Assembly: GCA_035256765.1 (NCBI GenBank)
Contig: DATEXR010000017.1
Coordinates: 1-62,503, forward strand
Origin: Candidatus Deferrimicrobiaceae bacterium
GTDB lineage: Bacteria > Desulfobacterota > Deferrimicrobia > Deferrimicrobiales > Deferrimicrobiaceae
Length of the DNA stretch: 62,503 nucleotides
Direction of reading: 5' to 3'
Shown piece by piece: positions 12,087 to 62,503 of the stretch. The position numbers were made by a program, and so were the translations under genes. Numbering within the stretch: position 1 is the stretch's first letter; the number at the start of each line of letters is the position of its first letter. Under the pieces are notes generated by a model. That model ran no database searches. It was not told the DNA's origin and was given only the letters and a program-made list of their open reading frames with translations.

Positions 12087-12482
12087 GTCCTCCCCCGCGC
12101 ATCCGGCTTCCTATTGCAGCATCTCGTAAATGGCTTGACGGTCCGATCCGCCGCCGGGATCGCCCGGGACAGGCGGCCTTCCCGCGCACAGGGCGCTGCG
12201 GAACCGGCAGCGGGCGGGCGCAAGGTCCCGATCGTTTGCCAACGCAGCCCCCCGGCATCCAGAGGTCCGTTCCGGAAGAGGCCGTGCACCGAGAGGGTCG
12301 ATGCGCCCCGACCGGCGAGGCGCCCGGCCGAGGCGTACCCGCCGCGGTACGGTGAGGGCGGGCAACGAAGCCGGCGGGGATGCAGCGGCCCTCGAATGCC
12401 GGGATCTCCCGGGAATGGATCTCCGGAGGCCGGCGAGCCCGTGCGACGGACTCGTTGCTCCCTGGTTTGCCAAGACGCAACA

Positions 12483-41157: not shown

Positions 41158-43809
41158 CTACTCGTAGTCCCGCGCCAGGTCCTCGAACCGCGTGTAGCGG
41201 GAGAGGAACGCGAGATCGACTACGCCCATCGGGCCGTTCCGCTGCTTCCCGATGATGATCTCGGCCTTCCCCTTTTTCTCCTCGGGAGTGTTCGCCTTGG
41301 CGTACATCTCCTCCCTGTATATGAACAGAATCAAATCTGAATCCTGCTCAATCGCCCCCGAATTGTGGGAAACGAGGCCGTCCGCCAGCCAGGAGGAAGG
41401 CCCCGGAACGGTCAGGTCGAAGACCTCCTCGGCCCCGTCGGTACGAAGATCCGTCACCCGGTCCCAGAACAAGTCGCTTGCGGCGCATCGCCGCAGCGGT
41501 TCATCGTCCAGAAGGATCGCATAGTCCATCAGCAAGGTCCGCGACGGGGAGAAATCGAGCTGCGCGCTTCCCCCGTACGCGGTTCCCCGGAGCGATGCCA
41601 TGTCCCGACGAGAGATTCCCCGCACCGCCATGGCCTCCTTCACCCGGAGAAACATTTCTTTCGGCAACGTGTCGACATTGGGATTGGATTCCACGAAGGC
41701 CAGTTCCTCCCACAGCCTGTCCGCGGGAGCGACGCGCGGCCCGAACGCCCCCACCGTCTCGAGAAAACGCTTCTGCTGATCGGCGTCGGACACATCCACG
41801 GTGTACACAGGTCGGTACTTCCCCTTCCGCACGACCCGGATCCTCGCCACGATCCCGAGCCGCAACAGCAGAGCCGCCACGTCGAAGGCAAGTCCCTCGC
41901 TCGAGGTGCTGAAGTAGACCCGCGACGACCCCTTGGACCCTCCCCGGCGACAGAAGATGCTCCCGTCCGTCGCCCAGAGATGTCTCAACAACAATCCGAC
42001 CTGCTCGTCGTCGAACCGGAAGACCTCCACGGGCAACCGCTTCTCGTGCGATCGCTGTCCGAAGATCCCCAGATCCCGCAGCCAGCGGTTCACCCCGGCC
42101 GGGCGCCACCGGTTGCCGTTCCCACCGATAAAGAGCTGGTGCCATTTCCCCCGTCCGCGAATCCGAGCTACCTTCGATCCGAACTCTCTTCGGGCCGCCC
42201 CTTCGACCGCACAGCTGTTCGGTTCCGATGCCGTCGTGTACCGAAGAGATTGCCCGATAAGATAACTTCCGTCCCCGGCGAGATGGGCCAACAGGATGAT
42301 CCGGTCTTCCGCCCACCGGACCGGTTCTTTCGATTCCGGTACACGGCGAGCCACTGCAATCCGGTCGCCCGGCTTGAGATCGGATACTCGCACCCATCCG
42401 TTGGCGCCGTACAGACGGTGATCGGCGGTGGCGCGGATCATGCGGCCGCTGGCCATGGTGACACGCACCACGGGCCTCGTTCCCACCGACCAAATACATT
42501 CACTCTTCGCCGGGACGATCCTGCCTTCCGGCGACATCGACCACACCTCGGCCTCTTTGCCGACCAAATCCCGGATGGAAGGGCGGAGTCCGTCGGTCGT
42601 CAGAACCAGGGTGTCGCCCGTCACGCATTCCCTCAGATCCGCCATCTGGGGCCGCTTGTCGGTCCGGCTCTCCACTCCCCGGTTGAGCTGGGAGATGGCG
42701 AGAACCGGGACGTTGATCTCCTTCGCCAGGGCCTTGAGCGACCGTGAGATCTCCGAGATCTCCTGGACGCGGTTGTCCTGACCCGAACGGGATGTCGCCC
42801 CTCGCATGAGCTGGAGGTAGTCGACGACGACCATCCCGATTCCCTTGTCCTTTTTCAGCCGACGCGCCTTCGCGCGAAGCTCGAGGGCGGTGAGGGTCCC
42901 GGAGTCGTCGCAGTAGATCGGCGCCTCGGAGAGCTTCCCCACGGACGCGACGATGCGGTTGATCTCGTCCTGGGCCAGGTACCCGGTCCGCAGCCGCTGG
43001 AAATCGACGCGGGCATCGGAACAGATCATGCGGAGCGCGAGCTGCTGGCGGCTCATCTCCAGGGAGAAGATCGCGACCGGCAGCCCGTGGCGCAGGGCGG
43101 CGTGGAGGGCCACGTTCAGGGAGAAGGCCGTCTTTCCCATGCCGGGACGGGCCGCGATGACCACCATGTCGGCCTTCTGGAACCCCGCGGTCAGCCGGTC
43201 GAGATCGCGGAATCCGGAGGGGACCCCGGTGATCATCTCCTTCTTCTCGTAGAGCTTCTCGATCTCCCGCATCGCCTCCTTGCCCATCTCCGCCATCGAG
43301 TAGTAGGAGGGCTTGATCTTTTCCTCGGCGATCGCGAAGATCGCCTGCTCGGTCTTGTCGAGGAAGTCGTCGACCTCCCCGACCCCCTGGAACGCGGAGT
43401 TCGTGATCTGCTGGGCGACGGCGATCATGCTCCGCAGGATCGATTTCTCCTTCACCAGGCGCGCGTAGTCGGCGACGTTCGCGGTGGTGGGAATGTTGTG
43501 GATGAGCTCGGAGAGGTAGGAAAGGCCGCCCACCTCGTTCGCCACGCCCCGGGCGTTGAGGGACTCGGCGAGCGTCAGCTGGTCGATCGCCCGGCCCCGT
43601 TCGTAGAGGTCCACCATGGTGGAGAAGAGCGTCCGGTGGGCGCCCTGGTAGAAGTCGTCCGCGCGGAGAATCTCCACCACGTCGTTCATCAGGTCGTTGT
43701 TGAGCAGGACCGAGGCGAGCACGGCCTGCTCGGCCTCGAGACTGTGGGGAGGGATCTTCAGAAGAGAAGTTTCCGACGCACCCTGCGACGTCAGCCGCGA
43801 ACCGCTCAT
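41158..43809 (-). CDS. dnaB: replicative DNA helicase DnaB, interrupted by an intein
   Basis: 883 aa. PHSLEAEQAVLASVL, Walker A ARPGMGKTAF, and the DLRE / SGAIEQDSD helicase motif split by 422 aa. Confidence 0.95.
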   Translation of the reverse strand: MSGSRLTSQGASETSLLKIPPHSLEAEQAVLASVLLNNDLMNDVVEILRADDFYQGAHRTLFSTMVDLYERGRAIDQLTLAESLNARGVANEVGGLSYLSELIHNIPTTANVADYARLVKEKSILRSMIAVAQQITNSAFQGVGEVDDFLDKTEQAIFAIAEEKIKPSYYSMAEMGKEAMREIEKLYEKKEMITGVPSGFRDLDRLTAGFQKADMVVIAARPGMGKTAFSLNVALHAALRHGLPVAIFSLEMSRQQLALRMICSDARVDFQRLRTGYLAQDEINRIVASVGKLSEAPIYCDDSGTLTALELRAKARRLKKDKGIGMVVVDYLQLMRGATSRSGQDNRVQEISEISRSLKALAKEINVPVLAISQLNRGVESRTDKRPQMADLRECVTGDTLVLTTDGLRPSIRDLVGKEAEVWSMSPEGRIVPAKSECIWSVGTRPVVRVTMASGRMIRATADHRLYGANGWVRVSDLKPGDRIAVARRVPESKEPVRWAEDRIILLAHLAGDGSYLIGQSLRYTTASEPNSCAVEGAARREFGSKVARIRGRGKWHQLFIGGNGNRWRPAGVNRWLRDLGIFGQRSHEKRLPVEVFRFDDEQVGLLLRHLWATDGSIFCRRGGSKGSSRVYFSTSSEGLAFDVAALLLRLGIVARIRVVRKGKYRPVYTVDVSDADQQKRFLETVGAFGPRVAPADRLWEELAFVESNPNVDTLPKEMFLRVKEAMAVRGISRRDMASLRGTAYGGSAQLDFSPSRTLLMDYAILLDDEPLRRCAASDLFWDRVTDLRTDGAEEVFDLTVPGPSSWLADGLVSHNSGAIEQDSDLILFIYREEMYAKANTPEEKKGKAEIIIGKQRNGPMGVVDLAFLSRYTRFEDLARDYE
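41362..42627 (-). mobile_element. DnaB intein with LAGLIDADG homing-endonuclease domain (residues 395-816)
   Basis: Begins with Cys (TGC, complement of 42625-42627; CVTGDTLVLTTDG). Ends ...LVSHN (AAT, complement of 41362-41364) followed by Ser+1. Endonuclease blocks are LLAHLAGDGSY and LLRHLWATDGSI. Removing it restores DLRE-SGAIEQDSD. Confidence 0.9.
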
Positions 43810-47814: not shown

Positions 47815-47888
47815 TGGCTGGGAGGGAAGGGGTCGAACCTTCATTAGAGGCTCCAAAGGCCCCTGTCCTGCCGTTAGACGACCTCCCA
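47815..47888 (-). tRNA. tRNA-Gln (anticodon UUG), CCA encoded
   Basis: Hand fold of the minus strand: TGGGAGG / TC / GTC-TAACGGCA-GAC / A / GGGGC-CTTTGGA-GCCTC / TAAT / GAAGG-TTCGACC-CCTTC / CCTCCCA-G-CCA. 74 nt, with the T-loop TTCGA. Confidence 0.88.
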
Positions 47889-49238: not shown

Positions 49239-51866
49239 TTACCCCGCTTTTCGAAAGGAAAAACCGGTTTCCCCGTCCGCGTCCACCAGGACGGAATCCC
49301 CTTCGCGGAATTCCCCCTTGAGGATGTGGAGCGCGAGGGGGTCCTGGAGGTGCTTCTGGATGGCCCGGCGAAGCGGTCTTGCCCCGTAGGCGGGGTCGTA
49401 CCCGATCTCCGCAAGCCTTTCCCGGGCGGCGTCGGTCACGGTGACCGCGATCTTCCTGTCCGCAAGCCGGTCGTTCACCTCCCGGAGCATGATCCCGATG
49501 ATCCTTGCCAGTTCCTCCTTCCCGAGGGACCGGAACAGGATGATCTCGTCGAGACGGTTCAGGAACTCGGGGCGGAATTGCCGGCGGAGCTCCTCCATGA
49601 CCTTCTCCCGGACGGCCTTTTCTCCCTTGCCGGAGAGTTCCTGGATCCAGGAGGAGCCGATGTTGGAGGTAAGGATCACAACGGCGTTCCGGAAATCGAC
49701 GGTCCTTCCCTTCCCGTCGGTCAGCCGCCCGTCCTCGAGGATCTGCAGGAGGATGTGGAAGACGTCGGGGTGCGCCTTCTCCACCTCGTCGAACAGGATC
49801 ACCGTGTACGGTTTCCGTCGCACCGCCTCGGTCAGCGCACCCCCCTCCTCGTACCCCACGTACCCGGGGGGAGCCCCGATCATCCGCGCCACGGAGTGTC
49901 TCTCCATGTACTCGGACATGTCGAGGCGCACCATCGCCTGCTCGTCGTCGAAGAGAAACTGGGCCAGGGCCCGCGCCAGCTCCGTCTTCCCGACGCCGGT
50001 GGGCCCCATGAACAGGAAGGAACCGATGGGGCGGCGGGGGTCCTTCAACCCCGACCGGGCGCGGCGGACGGCGCTCGCGACGAGCCGGATGGCGTCGTCC
50101 TGGCCCACCACCCGCTCGCCGAGCCGCTCCTCCATCCGGACGAGCTTCTCGATCTCCCCCTCGACCAGCCTCGAGACCGGGATCCCGGTCCAGCGGGAGA
50201 CGACCTGGGCGATGTCCTCCTCATCCACCTCTTCCTTGAGGAGACGACCCCCGGGTTGGGTGATGTGCGGGGACACTCCTCTCCCGTGTCCCGGAGATAT
50301 ATCCGGAATGTCCCCCCTTAGCGCCTCCGCTTCTTTCTGCAGGGCGGGGATTTCGCCGTATTTCAGCTTCGAGGCCTTCCCGAGATCCCCCTCCCGCTCG
50401 GCCCGCTGCATCTCGGAGAGGGCCCGCTCGATCTTCTCCTTGACCTCGCGGCTCTTCCCGATCGCCTTCTTCTCCTCCTCCCACCGGGAGCGGTACTCCG
50501 CCGCCTTCCCCGAAAGCGCCGCCAGCTCCTCCTGGATGCGGGTGAGGCGCTGCCCCGAGGCGGCGTCGGTCTCCTTCGACAGGGCCTGCTTCTCCATCTC
50601 GAGCTGGATGATCTTCCGTTCGACCTCGTCGATCTCGGTGGGAACGGAGTCGATCTCGATCTTGAGCTTCGACGCGGCCTCGTCCACCAGGTCGATCGCC
50701 TTGTCGGGGAGAAACCGGTCGGAAATGTACCGGTTCGACAGGGTGGCGGCGGCGACAAGGGCCGAATCCTTGATTCGGACGCCGTGGTGCACCTCGTACC
50801 GGCCTTTGAGCCCCCGCAGGATCGCGATCGTGTCCTCGACCGACGGCTCCTCCACGAGAACGGGCTGGAAGCGCCTCTCCAGCGCGGCGTCCTTTTCCAC
50901 GTATTTGCGGTACTCGTCCAGGGTGGTCGCCCCGATGCAGCGCAGTTCGCCCCGGGCGAGGGCCGGTTTGAGCATGTTGGATGCGTCCATCGCCCCTTCG
51001 GCCTTGCCGATCCCCACGAGCGTGTGCAGCTCGTCGATGAAGAGGATCACCCGCCCCTCCGCGGCGGCGATCTCCGCAAGGACCGCCTTGAGCCGCTCCT
51101 CGAATTCGCCGCGGTACTTCGCGCCGGCGATCAGCGCCCCCATGTCCAGGGCGAGAACCCGCTTGTCCCGGAGACTTTCGGGGACGTCCCGGGTGACCAT
51201 CCGCTGCGCCAGTCCCTCGGCGATCGCCGTCTTCCCGACGCCCGGATCCCCGATCAGGACGGGGTTGTTCTTCGTCCGCCGGGAGAGGACCTGGATCACC
51301 CTCCGGATCTCGTCGTCCCTGCCGATGACGGGATCGAGCTTCTCCCGGCGGGCCAGTTCGGTCAGGTCCCGGCAATATCTGTCGAGCGCCTGGTACTTCG
51401 CCTCGGGGTTTTCATCCGTGATCCGCTGCGTCCCCCGGATGGAGGTAAGCGCCGACAGGAGACTTTCCCGCGTCACGCCGTGCCGACGGAGCAGATCCGC
51501 GAGGGCCCCCGGTTCGACGGTCATGGCGAGGAGGAAGTGTTCGGCGGAGAGGTACTCGTCCCGGAAGGCGTCCGCCTCGGCGAGCGCCCGGTTGAAAAGG
51601 GGTTCCATCCGCGGGGAGAGCCCGCGGCTCACGGCTCCCGACACCTTGGGGAAGGAACCGAGCAGGGAGGTCGCCCCGGACAGAAGACGCGGGACCGGCA
51701 CGCCCGCGCGGGCGAAAAGGTCCGTCGCCACCCCCCCCTCCTGGCGGAGCAGGGCGACGAAGAGATGTTCCGGCTCCACCTGGGCGTGGCCCGCCTCCGA
51801 GGCGATGCGGACGGCGTCCTGCAGAGCCTCCTGCGACTTCACGGTCAACTTGTCCAGAGATATCAT
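49239..51866 (-). CDS. clpB: ATP-dependent chaperone ClpB (carries an extra ~16 codons between the M-domain and NBD2)
   Basis: 875 aa with two AAA+ modules ([16 protein letters not shown]), a long coiled-coil M-domain and SRWTGIPV. There is no obvious Shine-Dalgarno sequence before the ATG. Confidence 0.95.
50269..50317. repeat. intragenic copy of the GGGGACACTCCT / GGAGTGTCCCC palindromic element (10/12 arm match)
   Basis: GGGGACACTCCT (50269-50280), a 24-nt spacer containing CCGGA-GATATA-TCCGG, then cGGAaTGTCCCCCC (50304-50317). Read on the coding strand it encodes [18 protein letters not shown] of ClpB. Confidence 0.75.
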
Positions 51867-51907
51867 CGGATATTCTTACAGCTCGATGAGGGGGGCTTTC
51901 TTGCAAC

Positions 51908-51955
51908 GGGGGGACACTCCTCAACATGAAACTCGAGATAGGAGTGTCCCCCCCC
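51908..51955. repeat. perfect 14-bp inverted repeat GGGGGGACACTCCT-N18-AGGAGTGTCCCCCC between degP and clpB
   Basis: Left arm 51908-51921 and right arm 51940-53 (C-run to 51955). It lies 42-89 nt upstream of the clpB ATG and about 36 nt after the degP stop. Confidence 0.9.
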
Positions 51956-51990
51956 AGCCTCCCTCTCAGGGAAGTGTTTCCCTGACGAAG

Positions 51991-53463
51991 TTACCGGTTC
52001 TTCACCGCGAGGAAGATCCGCCCCTCCCCCCGCTCCACGAGGAACAGGACGGTCTTCTCCTCCTTCACCTTCTTCATCCGTTGTTCGAACTCCTTGGAGT
52101 CCTTGACGGAGATCCGGTTGATCGCCCGGATGACGTCCCCCTCGCGGAAGCCCGCGTCTTCCGCCGGGCTGCCGGACTCGACCGACGAGACCAGCACCCC
52201 TTTCCGGTTCTCGATGTCGAGGTGCCTCGCCACCTCCGGCGTGATGTCCTGGACGGTGAGCCCCAGGCCTTTCGAGAGGTCCGGCCCACCGGCGCGCGTC
52301 TGCCCGCTTTCCGGCTCCATCTCCGCGATGGTCACGGGGATTTTTCCTTCCTTGCCGTCGCGGATCACGGTCACCTCCACATTCTTGCCGGGTTTCGTGG
52401 AGGCGACGATCTGGGGAAGATCGTGCTCGTCCGACACGTCCTTCCCGTCGAAGGAGACGATCACGTCCCCGGACCTAAGCCCCGCCTTCTCCGCCGGGCC
52501 GCCCTTGGTGACGTCCGCCACCAAGGCGCCCTTCTTCCCCGGTACGGAAAGCGTCTCCGCCATGTCCGGCGTCAGACGCTGGATGTAGACGCCGAGCCAG
52601 CCGCGGGTGACCTTCCCCTTCTCCTTGAGCTGGCCGAGGACGGACTTTGCCAGGTGGATGGGGGTCGCGAAACCGATCCCCTGGCCGCCCTGGACGATCG
52701 CCGTGTTGATCCCGACGACCTCACCCTTCATGTTGAACAGGGGACCGCCCGAGTTTCCGGGGTTGATCGACGCGTCGGTCTGGATGAAATCGTCGTACGG
52801 CCCGGAACCGATCACCCGTCCCTTGGCGCTCACGATCCCCGTCGTGACGGTGTGCCCGAGGCCGAACGGATTCCCGATGGCCACGACCCATTCCCCGATC
52901 TCCAGCTTCTCCGAATCCCCGAGGGGCACGAACGGAAGCTTCTTCCCCGTCTTGATCTTGATGAGGGCAATGTCGGTCTTCGGGTCGGTGCCGACCACCT
53001 CCGCCCGGAATTCCTCCTTGTCCAGCAACGTCACCGTGATCTCGTCGGCCTTCTCGACCACGTGGTTGTTGGTGAGGATGAACCCGTCATCGGAGACGAT
53101 GAACCCGGACCCCAGGCTCCTGCGCTTCTGCTCCCGGGGGATGTTCCCGAAGAAGTTGTGGAAGAATTCCTCGAACGGGTCCTGCTGGCCGAAGGGGGAG
53201 CGCAAGCGCGGCCGGTTGAACCGCACCACCTGCGTCGTGCTGATGTTCACGACCGCCGGCGAAACCCCTTTCGCGAGGGTGGGAATGCTCTCGATCGGAA
53301 GCACTCTGTCCGGCGCGACGGCTCCGACCTCGCTCCCCTTTTCCTTCTCGCCCGACCCCAAGAAGGCGTTGGTCAGGGGAGACAGGTTCAATCCCGCCGA
53401 CAGGACCACTCCCGCGGCCACCGCCGCGAGCAAGAGAACGACGACCTTGCCTTTTCCGATCAC
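51991..53463 (-). CDS. periplasmic serine endoprotease DegP/HtrA (2 PDZ domains)
   Basis: GTG 53461-53463 overlaps the upstream stop (GTGA). The catalytic residues lie in NNHVV, DIALIK and GNSGGPL, followed by two PDZ-like segments. Confidence 0.9.
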
Positions 53464-61203: not shown

Positions 61204-61581
61204 TCAGTACCCTTTCAACACCTTCGATATGAATCTCGCAAGCAGATGGCCGTCCACCGGCTTGGTGACGTATCCCAGCACGCCCACCTCGACCGCCCAC
61301 ATCCGCTGCGCCTTGCTGTCCTCCGCGGATAACAGGAGGACCGGGACCCGCGAAGCGACGCGCCCGATCTTGGCCAGCGTGTCCAGGCCTCCGGACGAGG
61401 GCACGTCCATGTCGATGACGAGGAGGTCCGTCCCCCCGCGGACGGCACTGACCAGACCGGCGGTGCAGTCCGTGAAGAGCTCCGTCATGGCCCCCGCCTC
61501 GGAGAGTGCCCCCAGAAGCGGAGCCATCGGACCCCAGTCCTCTCCTTGTGCATCCGCGATCAGAACCACTCTTCGGGCCAC
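61204..61581 (-). CDS. single-domain response regulator (CheY-like receiver)
   Basis: 125 aa with a GTG start and GGGAGG upstream. The phospho-acceptor context is LLVIDMDVP. The Ser in LLLSAED and the Lys in YVTKP are conserved. Confidence 0.8.
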
Positions 61582-61608
61582 TTTTTCCTCCCTGCACCCT
61601 ACCTGATG

Positions 61609-61625
61609 TCCAACATCCGTGCCAA
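61609..61625 (-). promoter_or_regulatory. candidate sigma54 (-24/-12) promoter upstream of the receiver-dnaK operon
   Basis: The minus strand reads TTGGCACG-GATG-TTGGA. The -24 element is perfect, but the -12 reads TTGG instead of TTGC. It lies about 28 nt upstream of the GTG at 61581. Confidence 0.5.
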
Positions 61626-61783
61626 AGGGAGCCCCCTTGTAAGATCAGCATAACTTTCTGTTTTTAATCAGTTATTATTGGCCAATACCGGACAGGCGAT
61701 CAACCGAAGAAAAAATCGCGCCAAAATGGCGTACCTGCGCCGCCCCTGGGCTGCGCCATTTTGACGTGATCAACTTCCTGTGC

Positions 61784-61876
61784 GGGGACACTCCGGGGAC
61801 ACTCCTGATTCTATCGACGAGAAATAAAGGAGTGTCCCCACCCAGTGTTAGGAATGTCCCCCTTGGGAGTGTCCCC
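61784..61876. repeat. cluster of five GGGGACACTCC(T) / (A)GGAGTGTCCCC half-sites
   Basis: Forward copies at 61784-61794 and 61795-61806 (tandem, 11-bp register). Reverse copies at 61828-61839 (perfect), 61850-61862 (GGAATGTCCCCC) and 61865-61876. Confidence 0.9.
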
Positions 61877-61985
61877 GGGGACCGCAACCGGGGCCCCTGG
61901 CTCGCGGAGGGGTCCCCTCGGCTACGCTCGCGACCTTGCGCCCGCTCGCTGCCGGTTCCGCTCGACGCGATTTCTTCCCTTCGGC

Positions 61986-62034
61986 GGGACACTCCTCCAA
62001 CCGTACTACCGACAACCTCCAGGAGTGTCCCCCC
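61986..62034. repeat. inverted repeat GGGACACTCCT-N24-AGGAGTGTCCCCCC
   Basis: Left arm 61986-61996 and right arm 62021-62034, with perfect 11-bp complementarity. Confidence 0.9.
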
Positions 62035-62332
62035 GCCTCGTCGACCCCCCCGCATCGCCTCGGGTCCCCGGCCGACGAACAAGCCACGCGGCGCCTTCCC
62101 GGTGCGTACCCTACACCGGGGCGCCATCGGCGGAGCAGCCGAAGGACGGGGGGTCCGAACGGAGCTTTCCGGGAGGAAGGTCAAGCGCAGACTTGCGGGT
62201 TCATCGCAAGTCGAGCGACGAAGTGAGCGACCCCCCTCCGAGGATGCGGAGCGATAGCCGCCCGCGAGCCCCGGGCACCGGGAGGCACGTATAGAACCGT
62301 TGCCATATTTTGGATATGAACCACGAAGCTTC

Positions 62333-62503
62333 CTAGGAGATCCCGTACTCCCTGACTTTTCGCTGGAGGGTTCGCAGCCCGATCCCGAGCCTCTTCGCCG
62401 CCTGCGTCTTGTTCCCGTCCGTCTTCAGCAGGGCGGCCACGATGGCCTCGCGCTCGATCTCCTCGAGCGTTCGGGCCGAAGGAAGGGGAATCGGTCCGGA
62501 CGG
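62333..62503 (-). CDS. sigma54-dependent transcriptional activator, C-terminal Fis-type HTH (5' part outside the window)
   Basis: Not in the ORF track. My minus-strand translation ends ...PSARTLEEIEREAIVAALLKTDGNKTQAAKRLGIGLRTLQRKVREYGIS-TAG (stop 62333-62335), the typical C-terminus of NtrC-family enhancer-binding proteins. Confidence 0.8.
   Translation of the reverse strand, partial: PSGPIPLPSARTLEEIEREAIVAALLKTDGNKTQAAKRLGIGLRTLQRKVREYGIS

Follow-up and report, generated by a model that had tools for sequence, protein, structure and literature searches.

Between degP and clpB, the window (i.e., the whole 62,503-nt stretch of Candidatus Deferrimicrobiaceae DNA that was analysed) contains a perfect inverted repeat that is, with a probability of about 70%, one copy of a REP/REPIN-like family of mobile palindromes that has remodelled the degP-clpB spacer. 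Judging from the copies recovered, this family is dispersed through Deferrimicrobiaceae-like genomes in the fashion of REPs/REPINs or very small MITEs. The regulatory reading of the initial annotation, in which the repeat could serve clpB as an operator or UAS, gives way for the most part to an ordinary one, namely that of a new dispersed palindromic repeat. In the mechanism proposed here, a compound copy of 98 nt would sit in the remodelled degP-clpB spacer of the window lineage, and this spacer would have lost an ancestral GC hairpin as well as a GGAGG Shine-Dalgarno (SD) sequence. The element would carry no promoter and would not be a transcription factor site for clpB; clpB would close a heat-shock operon of ten genes and be transcribed by read-through from a sigma54-type promoter near 61610-61624. 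Within the transcript, the element is predicted to fold into a very stable stem-loop without a U-tract, and its most probable effect would be the generic REP-type one, e.g., a barrier to 3'-5' exonucleases and/or a partial block of read-through that shifts the degP:clpB ratio. As a side effect, translation of clpB would be uncoupled from that of degP. The effect at the RNA level is put forward by analogy; REPs in the malEFG operon form an RNA hairpin that protects the upstream mRNA.

The initial annotation had described a perfect inverted repeat between the two genes, and the repeat search returned the same structure, GGGGGGACACTCCT-N18-AGGAGTGTCCCCCC, with arms of 14 nt (51908-51921 and 51940-51953) that are 100% complementary. 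It lies 42-89 nt 5' of the clpB ATG and 35 nt past the degP stop codon (earlier given as about 36 nt). Three structures make up the 98-nt compound element: the perfect hairpin, an outer stem (GGGAGGCU / AGCCCCCC), and a small hairpin whose box is degenerate (GGGAAACACTTCCC). The positions of these and of the other features discussed below are collected in Table 1.

Table 1. Genes, repeat copies, and candidate signals in the window
Feature	Position	Strand	Description
clpB	49239..51866	-	875 aa
In-frame element copy, loop subfamily A	50267..50317	-	adds about 15-17 residues in the M-domain/NBD2 linker of ClpB
SD-less clpB leader	51867..51885	-	cgagctgTAAGAATATCCG before ATG (also TAAGAATATCCG-ATG); common to L126; by position kept in X28
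Compound element, 98 nt	51886..51983	-	present/absent between relatives; skipped in the X28 contig
Hairpin unit	51908..51953	.	arms GGGGGGACACTCCT / AGGAGTGTCCCCCC; 18-nt loop of subfamily C (caacatgaaactcgagat)
degP/htrA-like serine protease gene	51991..53463	-	490 aa as called; Trypsin_2 and two PDZ domains
Response regulator gene	61204..61527	-	first gene of the heat-shock gene row
Sigma54-type promoter match	61610..61624	-	TGGCACGGATGTTGG; top match in the whole window; ~80 nt 5' of the response-regulator ATG
Conserved inverted repeat	61715..61770	.	..AAAATGGCG.. / ..CGCCATTTT..; 5' of the sigma54 promoter; also in L126 and L127
Five-box cluster	61782..61875	two +, three -	in the 805-nt spacer from the sigma54-activator gene to the response-regulator/dnaK operon
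Further hairpin copy, loop subfamily D	61983..62034	.	same loop in L050 and in the MITE of the L125 spacer

The 10-nt box GGGACACTCC is present in nine exact copies in the 62.5-kb window, eight of them extragenic, and these make up four sites: the degP-clpB hairpin, the pair inside clpB, the five-box cluster, and the pair in the further hairpin copy. Across four DNA metagenomes from soil and sediment, the stretch 51912-51959 was covered 15-25x as deeply as its flanks (region examined: 51600-52300), and in metagenome X13 a depth of ~1400 over the hairpin was found vs. ~65 in its flanks. In many metagenome contigs, similarity is confined to 51908-51953 (4-5 differences) and gives way to unrelated sequence beyond it. 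Given this excess in depth and the divergence of contigs at the hairpin edges, the hairpin together with its loop is multi-copy in these communities. A scan for exact arms, using one genome per species, gave at least 120 stretches, and two to seven separate perfect-arm contigs were found in each of the MAGs of the Deferrimicrobiaceae type among the matches listed.

The family unit comprises two inverted arms of 12-14 nt with the core GGGACACTCC(T) and a loop of 18-24 nt (~45-50 nt in total), and units are often nested or clustered. The arms are near-invariant; the loops can be grouped into subfamilies that recur. Subfamily A (gattcatctccggaatacgggag-like) is represented by the copy inside clpB and is also found in intergenic positions in L008 and L078; subfamily B (ggttttctcgNcgaaaaaaca) forms the centre of a ~290-bp MITE with terminal inverted repeats of its own (alignment A1), and the loop at 61807 is of the same type; subfamily C includes the degP-clpB copy, with a similar loop in L005; and subfamily D (ccaaccgtactaccgacaacctcc) includes the copy at 61997, L050, and the MITE in the degP-clpB spacer of L125. 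That members of one loop subfamily turn up at unrelated loci shows that the arms are copied along with their loop. Changes inside the box were compensated in 21 cases vs. 111 one-sided ones (sampled pairs, in a sample biased by the search pattern), and this rarity of compensation suggests that the box sequence itself is read, beyond mere pairing. We infer that copying takes place in trans, by an enzyme that reads the box sequence. A MITE family of ~290-400 bp, with terminal repeats like CTAGTGTACCGTCTCGCAAATA, is also present in Deferrimicrobiaceae genomes; a fragment lies in the window at ~12150-12450 between two minus-strand ORFs and matches L058 twice, and a full copy (L125, 9578-10000) occupies a degP-clpB spacer.

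Among known repeat families, the closest parallel is with REPs/REPINs (BIMEs in E. coli), which are mobilised by RAYT transposases. As in these, the units are short palindromes (~45-50 nt here) arranged as inverted doublets around a less conserved spacer; they are multi-copy and mostly extragenic, are found as singlets, doublets, or nested clusters, and are located inside operons. A short palindrome in many, mostly extragenic copies was observed in the window, with multi-copy status also seen in metagenome depth and in MAGs, and the inverted doublet is itself the repeated unit. Several properties differ from those of REPs, i.e., the arms begin with G/C-rich runs (GGGGGGACAC) and have no GTAG-type 5' tetranucleotide or flanking GTAG, no RAYT gene was found next to any copy among the 120 loci listed, identical 11-nt arms are found in several phyla whereas REPs are normally species-specific, and one copy of the box family is in-frame within a gene. 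MITEs such as the Correia elements of Neisseria resemble the family in being non-autonomous, insertion-polymorphic, often co-transcribed, and able to alter the expression of neighbouring genes, and true MITEs of ~290-400 bp that carry the box hairpin reside in the same genomes (A1; L125 spacer). In contrast to MITEs, the hairpin unit is far shorter, and no target-site duplication or parent IS was identified.

An all-vs-all clustering of 1861 ORFs located within 2.5 kb of the hairpins at the 120 loci listed gave no recurrent transposase, and Pfam assigned the recurrent neighbour clusters to ABC transporters, histidine kinases, and similar housekeeping functions only. A search of about 1 Mb around the hairpins revealed no small ORF bracketed by boxes. 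In L116, two elements 2 kb apart lie on either side of a lemA-type operon; judged from the translated ORFs alone, there is no transposase-like ORF between them. At the gathering threshold, Rfam matched nothing in the window apart from a tRNA (see below); at E <= 1 it returned no match in 51750-52100, and only spurious miRNA-hairpin matches far below the gathering score in 61450-62400. A full-text literature search for the box and its variants, as DNA and as RNA, retrieved only unrelated eukaryotic primers and siRNAs. A phage origin was rejected, with one box match in 2.9 million viral contigs.

Loci encoding ClpB homologues were compared, and relatives were found to carry different spacers between degP and clpB (percentages given with the L loci are ClpB identities to the window). 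In L126 (89%), the spacer of 96 nt contains the same hairpin with a closely similar loop, GGGACATTCC as its 5' arm, and a third arm. In L125 (96%), the spacer of 423 nt holds a different MITE (~400 bp) with a subfamily-D hairpin. The spacer of L127 (89%, 71 nt) has no box; it contains a GC hairpin, GGCCCGCCC..GGGCGGGCC, followed by GGAGG 5-6 nt before the ATG, and L129 (91%, 73 nt), L130 (90%, 72 nt), and L131 (89%, 76 nt) are of the same kind. A metatranscriptome contig of 1199 nt (X28, ~93% identical) joins 51885 directly to 51984, leaving a hairpin-free spacer of 26 nt, and an RNA contig from X25 crosses the junction, with 51857-51991 replaced by 85 other letters. Because relatives differ in spacer content in this way, the degP-clpB spacer is, on the alleles compared, a hot spot of repeat turnover. 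No allele with an empty site was seen in the DNA of four metagenomes, and no target-site duplication is visible at the 51885/51984 joint, the empty allele being ~7% diverged. It is possible that the empty site, known from one RNA-library contig of a ~93% relative, reflects a deletion rather than an insertion, and the library behind that contig may also have carried contaminating DNA. L127 has the same operon with the same flanking genes and zero exact boxes in 22.6 kb; the boxes are thus dispensable for running the heat-shock operon.

Presence/absence between close relatives was also found for the copy inside clpB. Its arms are translated as GDIP/GDTP (GGG GAC AYT CC) and GVSP (GGA GTG TCC CC), and alignment of the window ClpB with that of T. 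thermophilus (1QVR) places 17 extra residues precisely where the M-domain ends and NBD2 begins. Among 120 close homologues, some ClpB proteins of 87-97% identity carry the insert and some have longer nested versions (..GDTPVSLTGDIPDSSPEYGRGVSPH..); ClpB forms of 858-860 aa, which are 95-96% identical, retain only a remnant, R[KRG]D[TA]P[DG]SPG, and most other homologues are without the insert. Since L130 combines the clpB insert with an ancestral spacer, the clpB and spacer insertions were independent events. This copy resembles the Rickettsia palindromic elements (RPEs), in that an in-frame palindrome lies in a conserved gene, leaves the ORF intact, encodes a short surface peptide, and is present or absent between close relatives. 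An in-frame insertion of the RPE type was found here for the clpB copy, a comparison that does not apply to the intergenic degP-clpB copy. RPEs differ in being about 100-150 bp long and restricted to Rickettsia, they share no sequence similarity with the box family, and most copies of the latter are intergenic.

Gene calls on four independent assemblies that encode an identical ClpB, mapped onto the window, gave a row on the minus strand consisting of the response regulator, dnaK, two hsp20 genes, dnaJ, htpX (M48 peptidase), a clpC-like gene (ATPase of 758 aa), DUF1844, degP, and clpB. This heat-shock row appears to be sigma54-dependent, in view of the sigma54-activator gene, a conserved dyad, and TGGCACGGATGTTGG ~80 nt before the response-regulator ATG. 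The match at 61610-61624 likely drives a ten-gene operon that ends in clpB, and the dyad at 61715..61770 is likely the real, if putative, activator-binding site. The window, L126, and L127 all have this dyad (AAAATGGCA/G...TGCCATTTT) together with a sigma54-type promoter sequence upstream of the operon. The activator gene, whose product has a Fis-type HTH at its C-terminus, ends at 62333 (within 62333-62503). The spacer between the activator and response-regulator genes measures 805 nt in the window vs. roughly 35-250 nt in L126 and L127, depending on the start calls. As the spacers of these two relatives are shorter and without a box, the box clusters 5' of the operon are insertions. Elsewhere in the window, a tRNA-Gln (anticodon TTG; 47815-47888, minus strand) between prs and spoVG is the sole Rfam/ARAGORN match, and dnaB (41158-43809, minus strand; 883 aa) contains an intein (Pfam Intein_splicing, LAGLIDADG_3) that is missing from the 461-462-aa DnaB orthologues of L125 and L127, i.e., intein presence/absence between relatives.

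The clpB start itself is devoid of the usual expression signals, as the initial annotation had pointed out. Direct reading confirmed that the 41 nt from the repeat to the clpB ATG (gttgcaagaaagcccccctcatcgagctgtaagaatatccg) contain no GG, the promoter scan gave no sigma54-like site between degP and clpB, and a simple scan of 51500-52400 gave no sigma70-like promoter on the minus strand. A GGAG-type SD is likewise lacking in front of clpB and present in front of 8 of the 11 other genes checked in the row. Readings of GTTGCAAG...TAAGAAT as a sigma32-like or leaderless promoter were discarded owing to unsuitable spacing. The clpB ATG is the true start, the N-terminus that follows being conserved in relatives, also where a GGAGG SD is present; in L127, L129, L130, and L131, which have the ancestral spacer, GGAGG precedes this same ATG. 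On comparison of the leaders, the SD-less TAAGAATNTCCG-ATG is a derived state common to the window and L126. Two metatranscriptome contigs from relatives (X28 and X25) run from degP into clpB; metatranscriptome contigs of the window allele break at the repeat. With no promoter signal nearby and RNA contigs that span degP-clpB in relatives, clpB is most likely the last gene of the sigma54-driven operon and transcribed by read-through.

Against the mobile-repeat reading stand the failure to find a mobilising gene in about 1 Mb of flanks or a target-site duplication at the 98-nt joint, the single RNA-library contig behind the empty site, and the break of RNA contigs at the repeat. In addition, the exact boxes in the window all lie in or beside the heat-shock row, which could hint at a local function, whereas the relatives argue otherwise. 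Furthermore, a strong hairpin is found at the degP-clpB position in most relatives, and the repeat may therefore be co-opted rather than neutral.

Co-option would mean that the stem-loop, whatever its origin, is now a selected intercistronic signal, and it is the strongest of the competing explanations, albeit an unlikely one. It could take the form of I) an attenuator without a U-tract; II) a stabiliser of the dnaK-degP 3' end; or III) an RNase processing site that gives rise to a separate clpB mRNA. The predicted fold of the spacer RNA is very stable, at -60.5 kcal/mol vs. a shuffle mean of -43.1 (z = -3.95), and on this folding model it is plausible that an RNA stem-loop would stabilise the degP-clpB transcript or attenuate it. 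In this fold, a small hairpin forms on the degenerate box (GGGAAACACUUCCC), the long box hairpin is lengthened by the outer stem, and UCAUCG pairs with CGAUGA in a short stem that includes the start codon AUG. Strong GC hairpins separate degP from clpB in seven of the eight distinct spacer alleles (the ancestral GGCCCGCCC..GGGCGGGCC in four, the box hairpin in two, and the MITE in one), and it is this presence of some strong hairpin in most relatives that leaves room for co-option. Moreover, L126 (ClpB 89% identical) shares a conserved hairpin and loop with the window, and the L123 spacer differs solely by a C>T substitution in its 5' arm that retains a G.U pair in the sense RNA. Against this stand the hairpin-free spacer of 26 nt in one relative and the lack of a U-tract after the hairpin. 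The C>T box variant is, in addition, common family-wide and need not reflect selection at the RNA level.

The variant box in question, GGGACATTCC (C>T at box position 7), recurs at L123 8500, at L126 9916, and in the window at 50305 and 61851; it occupies three sense-strand 5' arms, where it gives a G.U pair in RNA. It may represent a family polymorphism, a mutational hot spot, or tolerance at the RNA level. An intrinsic (Rho-independent) terminator, which would have ended the degP transcript at the stem-loop, was ruled out: the hairpin has no U-tract, the sense strand continuing as GUUGCAAG, and a search of 51500-52400 for a hairpin followed by a T-run gave zero sites on either strand.

Very improbable is the operator/UAS reading, in which a regulator, e.g., the sigma54 activator, binds the GGGGACACTCC dyads as DNA and controls clpB as well as the dnaK operon. 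It draws on the location of all exact window boxes in or next to the heat-shock gene row, on the box clusters 160-420 nt upstream of the sigma54 promoter, and on two boxes that are 11 nt apart, start to start. The proposal that the repeat is an operator or UAS for clpB is nonetheless not supported by its distribution: the same box is found in the clpB ORF, where one copy is in-frame, in the 290-bp MITE, next to unrelated housekeeping genes, and across many phyla (the same arms are seen in Clostridia, Gammaproteobacteria, Verrucomicrobiota, and further groups). At the degP-clpB position, relatives that share the operon lack the box, and the 22.6-kb locus of L127 contains no exact copy of it. 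What is conserved upstream of the operon is another inverted repeat, together with the sigma54 promoter; L126 and L127 keep the activator gene, the sigma54-type promoter sequence, and that different dyad (AAAATGGCA..TGCCATTTT), and have no upstream boxes. Neither a sigma54 nor a sigma70 promoter lies downstream of the degP-clpB copy.

Three more specific versions of this reading were rejected. For a sigma54 UAS, there is no -24/-12 match downstream of the degP-clpB copy, and relatives keep the promoter without the boxes. For a heat-shock-specific operator, chaperone genes were found nearby in only 4 of the 120 other hairpin loci listed (tblastn with 13 operon and flanking proteins), the other 116 not being next to chaperone genes. 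A CIRCE/HrcA operator (TTAGCACTC-N9-GAGTGCTAA) shares with the degP-clpB repeat the inverted arrangement, a CACTC...GAGTG core, and a place in front of a chaperone gene. It differs in its flanking bases and in its CACTC-GAGTG spacing (9 nt vs. 22 nt here), and the box repeat is not confined to chaperone genes and is absent from the operons of relatives; CIRCE was thus ruled out by sequence, by spacing, and by the 116 of 120 listed loci away from chaperone genes.

A chance palindrome or an assembly artefact can be dismissed, since, beyond the general abundance of GC-rich palindromes in a genome of 65% GC, nothing speaks for it, and it is refuted by the shuffle counts (12 occurrences of the 14-mer in the window at <=2 mismatches vs. 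1.5 +/- 1.1 after shuffling, a count of 12 being reached in 0 of 100 shuffles), by a matching spacer in independent assemblies from different samples (identical in three of four, with a single base difference in the fourth), and by a metagenome contig of 233 nt that spans the degP-clpB spacer with zero differences.

The distribution of the box extends well beyond the Deferrimicrobiaceae. Identical 11-nt arms were found in at least six phyla, with loops and flanks that are lineage-specific. Multi-copy hairpin families with identical arms are present in Deferrimicrobiaceae, several Clostridia, a Gammaproteobacteria MAG, and Verrucomicrobiota, in genomes that range from 24% to 70% GC, and 42 of the 120 hairpin loci listed are below 40% GC. 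Among the matches listed, AT-rich Clostridia (24-41% GC) have up to eight loci in one MAG, the Gammaproteobacteria MAG has at least ten loci, and Coraliomargarita at least three; the Clostridia with box hairpins include a cultured strain, Anaerobacterium chartisolvens DSM 27016 (L063). Box matches in single or few copies were obtained for Steroidobacteraceae, Luteolibacter, Omnitrophota, Planctomycetota, Armatimonadota (Fimbriimonadaceae), and Coriobacteriia. The hairpins of the AT-rich Clostridia have A and T runs at their flanks and lie right after stop codons, thereby resembling bidirectional terminators; some form 36-nt periodic arrays or perfect palindromes of ~130-150 nt. Box-hairpin loci of Clostridia, the Gammaproteobacteria MAG, and Verrucomicrobiota are L063, L023, L037, L093, L029, L085, L025, and L073. 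A composition-matched control box (GGGCACATCCT) gave 21 stretches from about eight distinct loci in a larger metagenome collection; as the real box (at least 120) was counted in the genome collection, the two figures come from different collections and the enrichment is semi-quantitative.

On this basis, it may tentatively be proposed, as a less than even prospect, that the 11-nt box GGGACACTCCT is recognised by a mobilisation or binding system that has spread horizontally and has yet to be described. If true, the elements would constitute a REPIN-like superfamily whose core is common to several phyla, in contrast to the REPs described to date, which are species-specific; its members can insert in-frame into an essential-type chaperone gene. 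Should the identity of the 11-nt arms across phyla reflect shared recognition machinery, it would merit a dedicated study. For the heat-shock operon of the window lineage, reading the degP-clpB dyad as a copy of a mobile palindrome family averts a mis-annotation: the dyad 5' of clpB would be selfish or structural repeat DNA rather than a heat-shock operator, and the operon would in fact be controlled through the sigma54 promoter and another dyad, which lie about 10 kb further upstream. The close relatives amount to a natural experiment: four types of degP-clpB spacer occur among them, a canonical SD is present in some and missing in others, and the same is true of the loop that the repeat encodes in ClpB. 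Their spacer alleles allow testing of how palindromic repeats reshape both operon expression and protein sequence.
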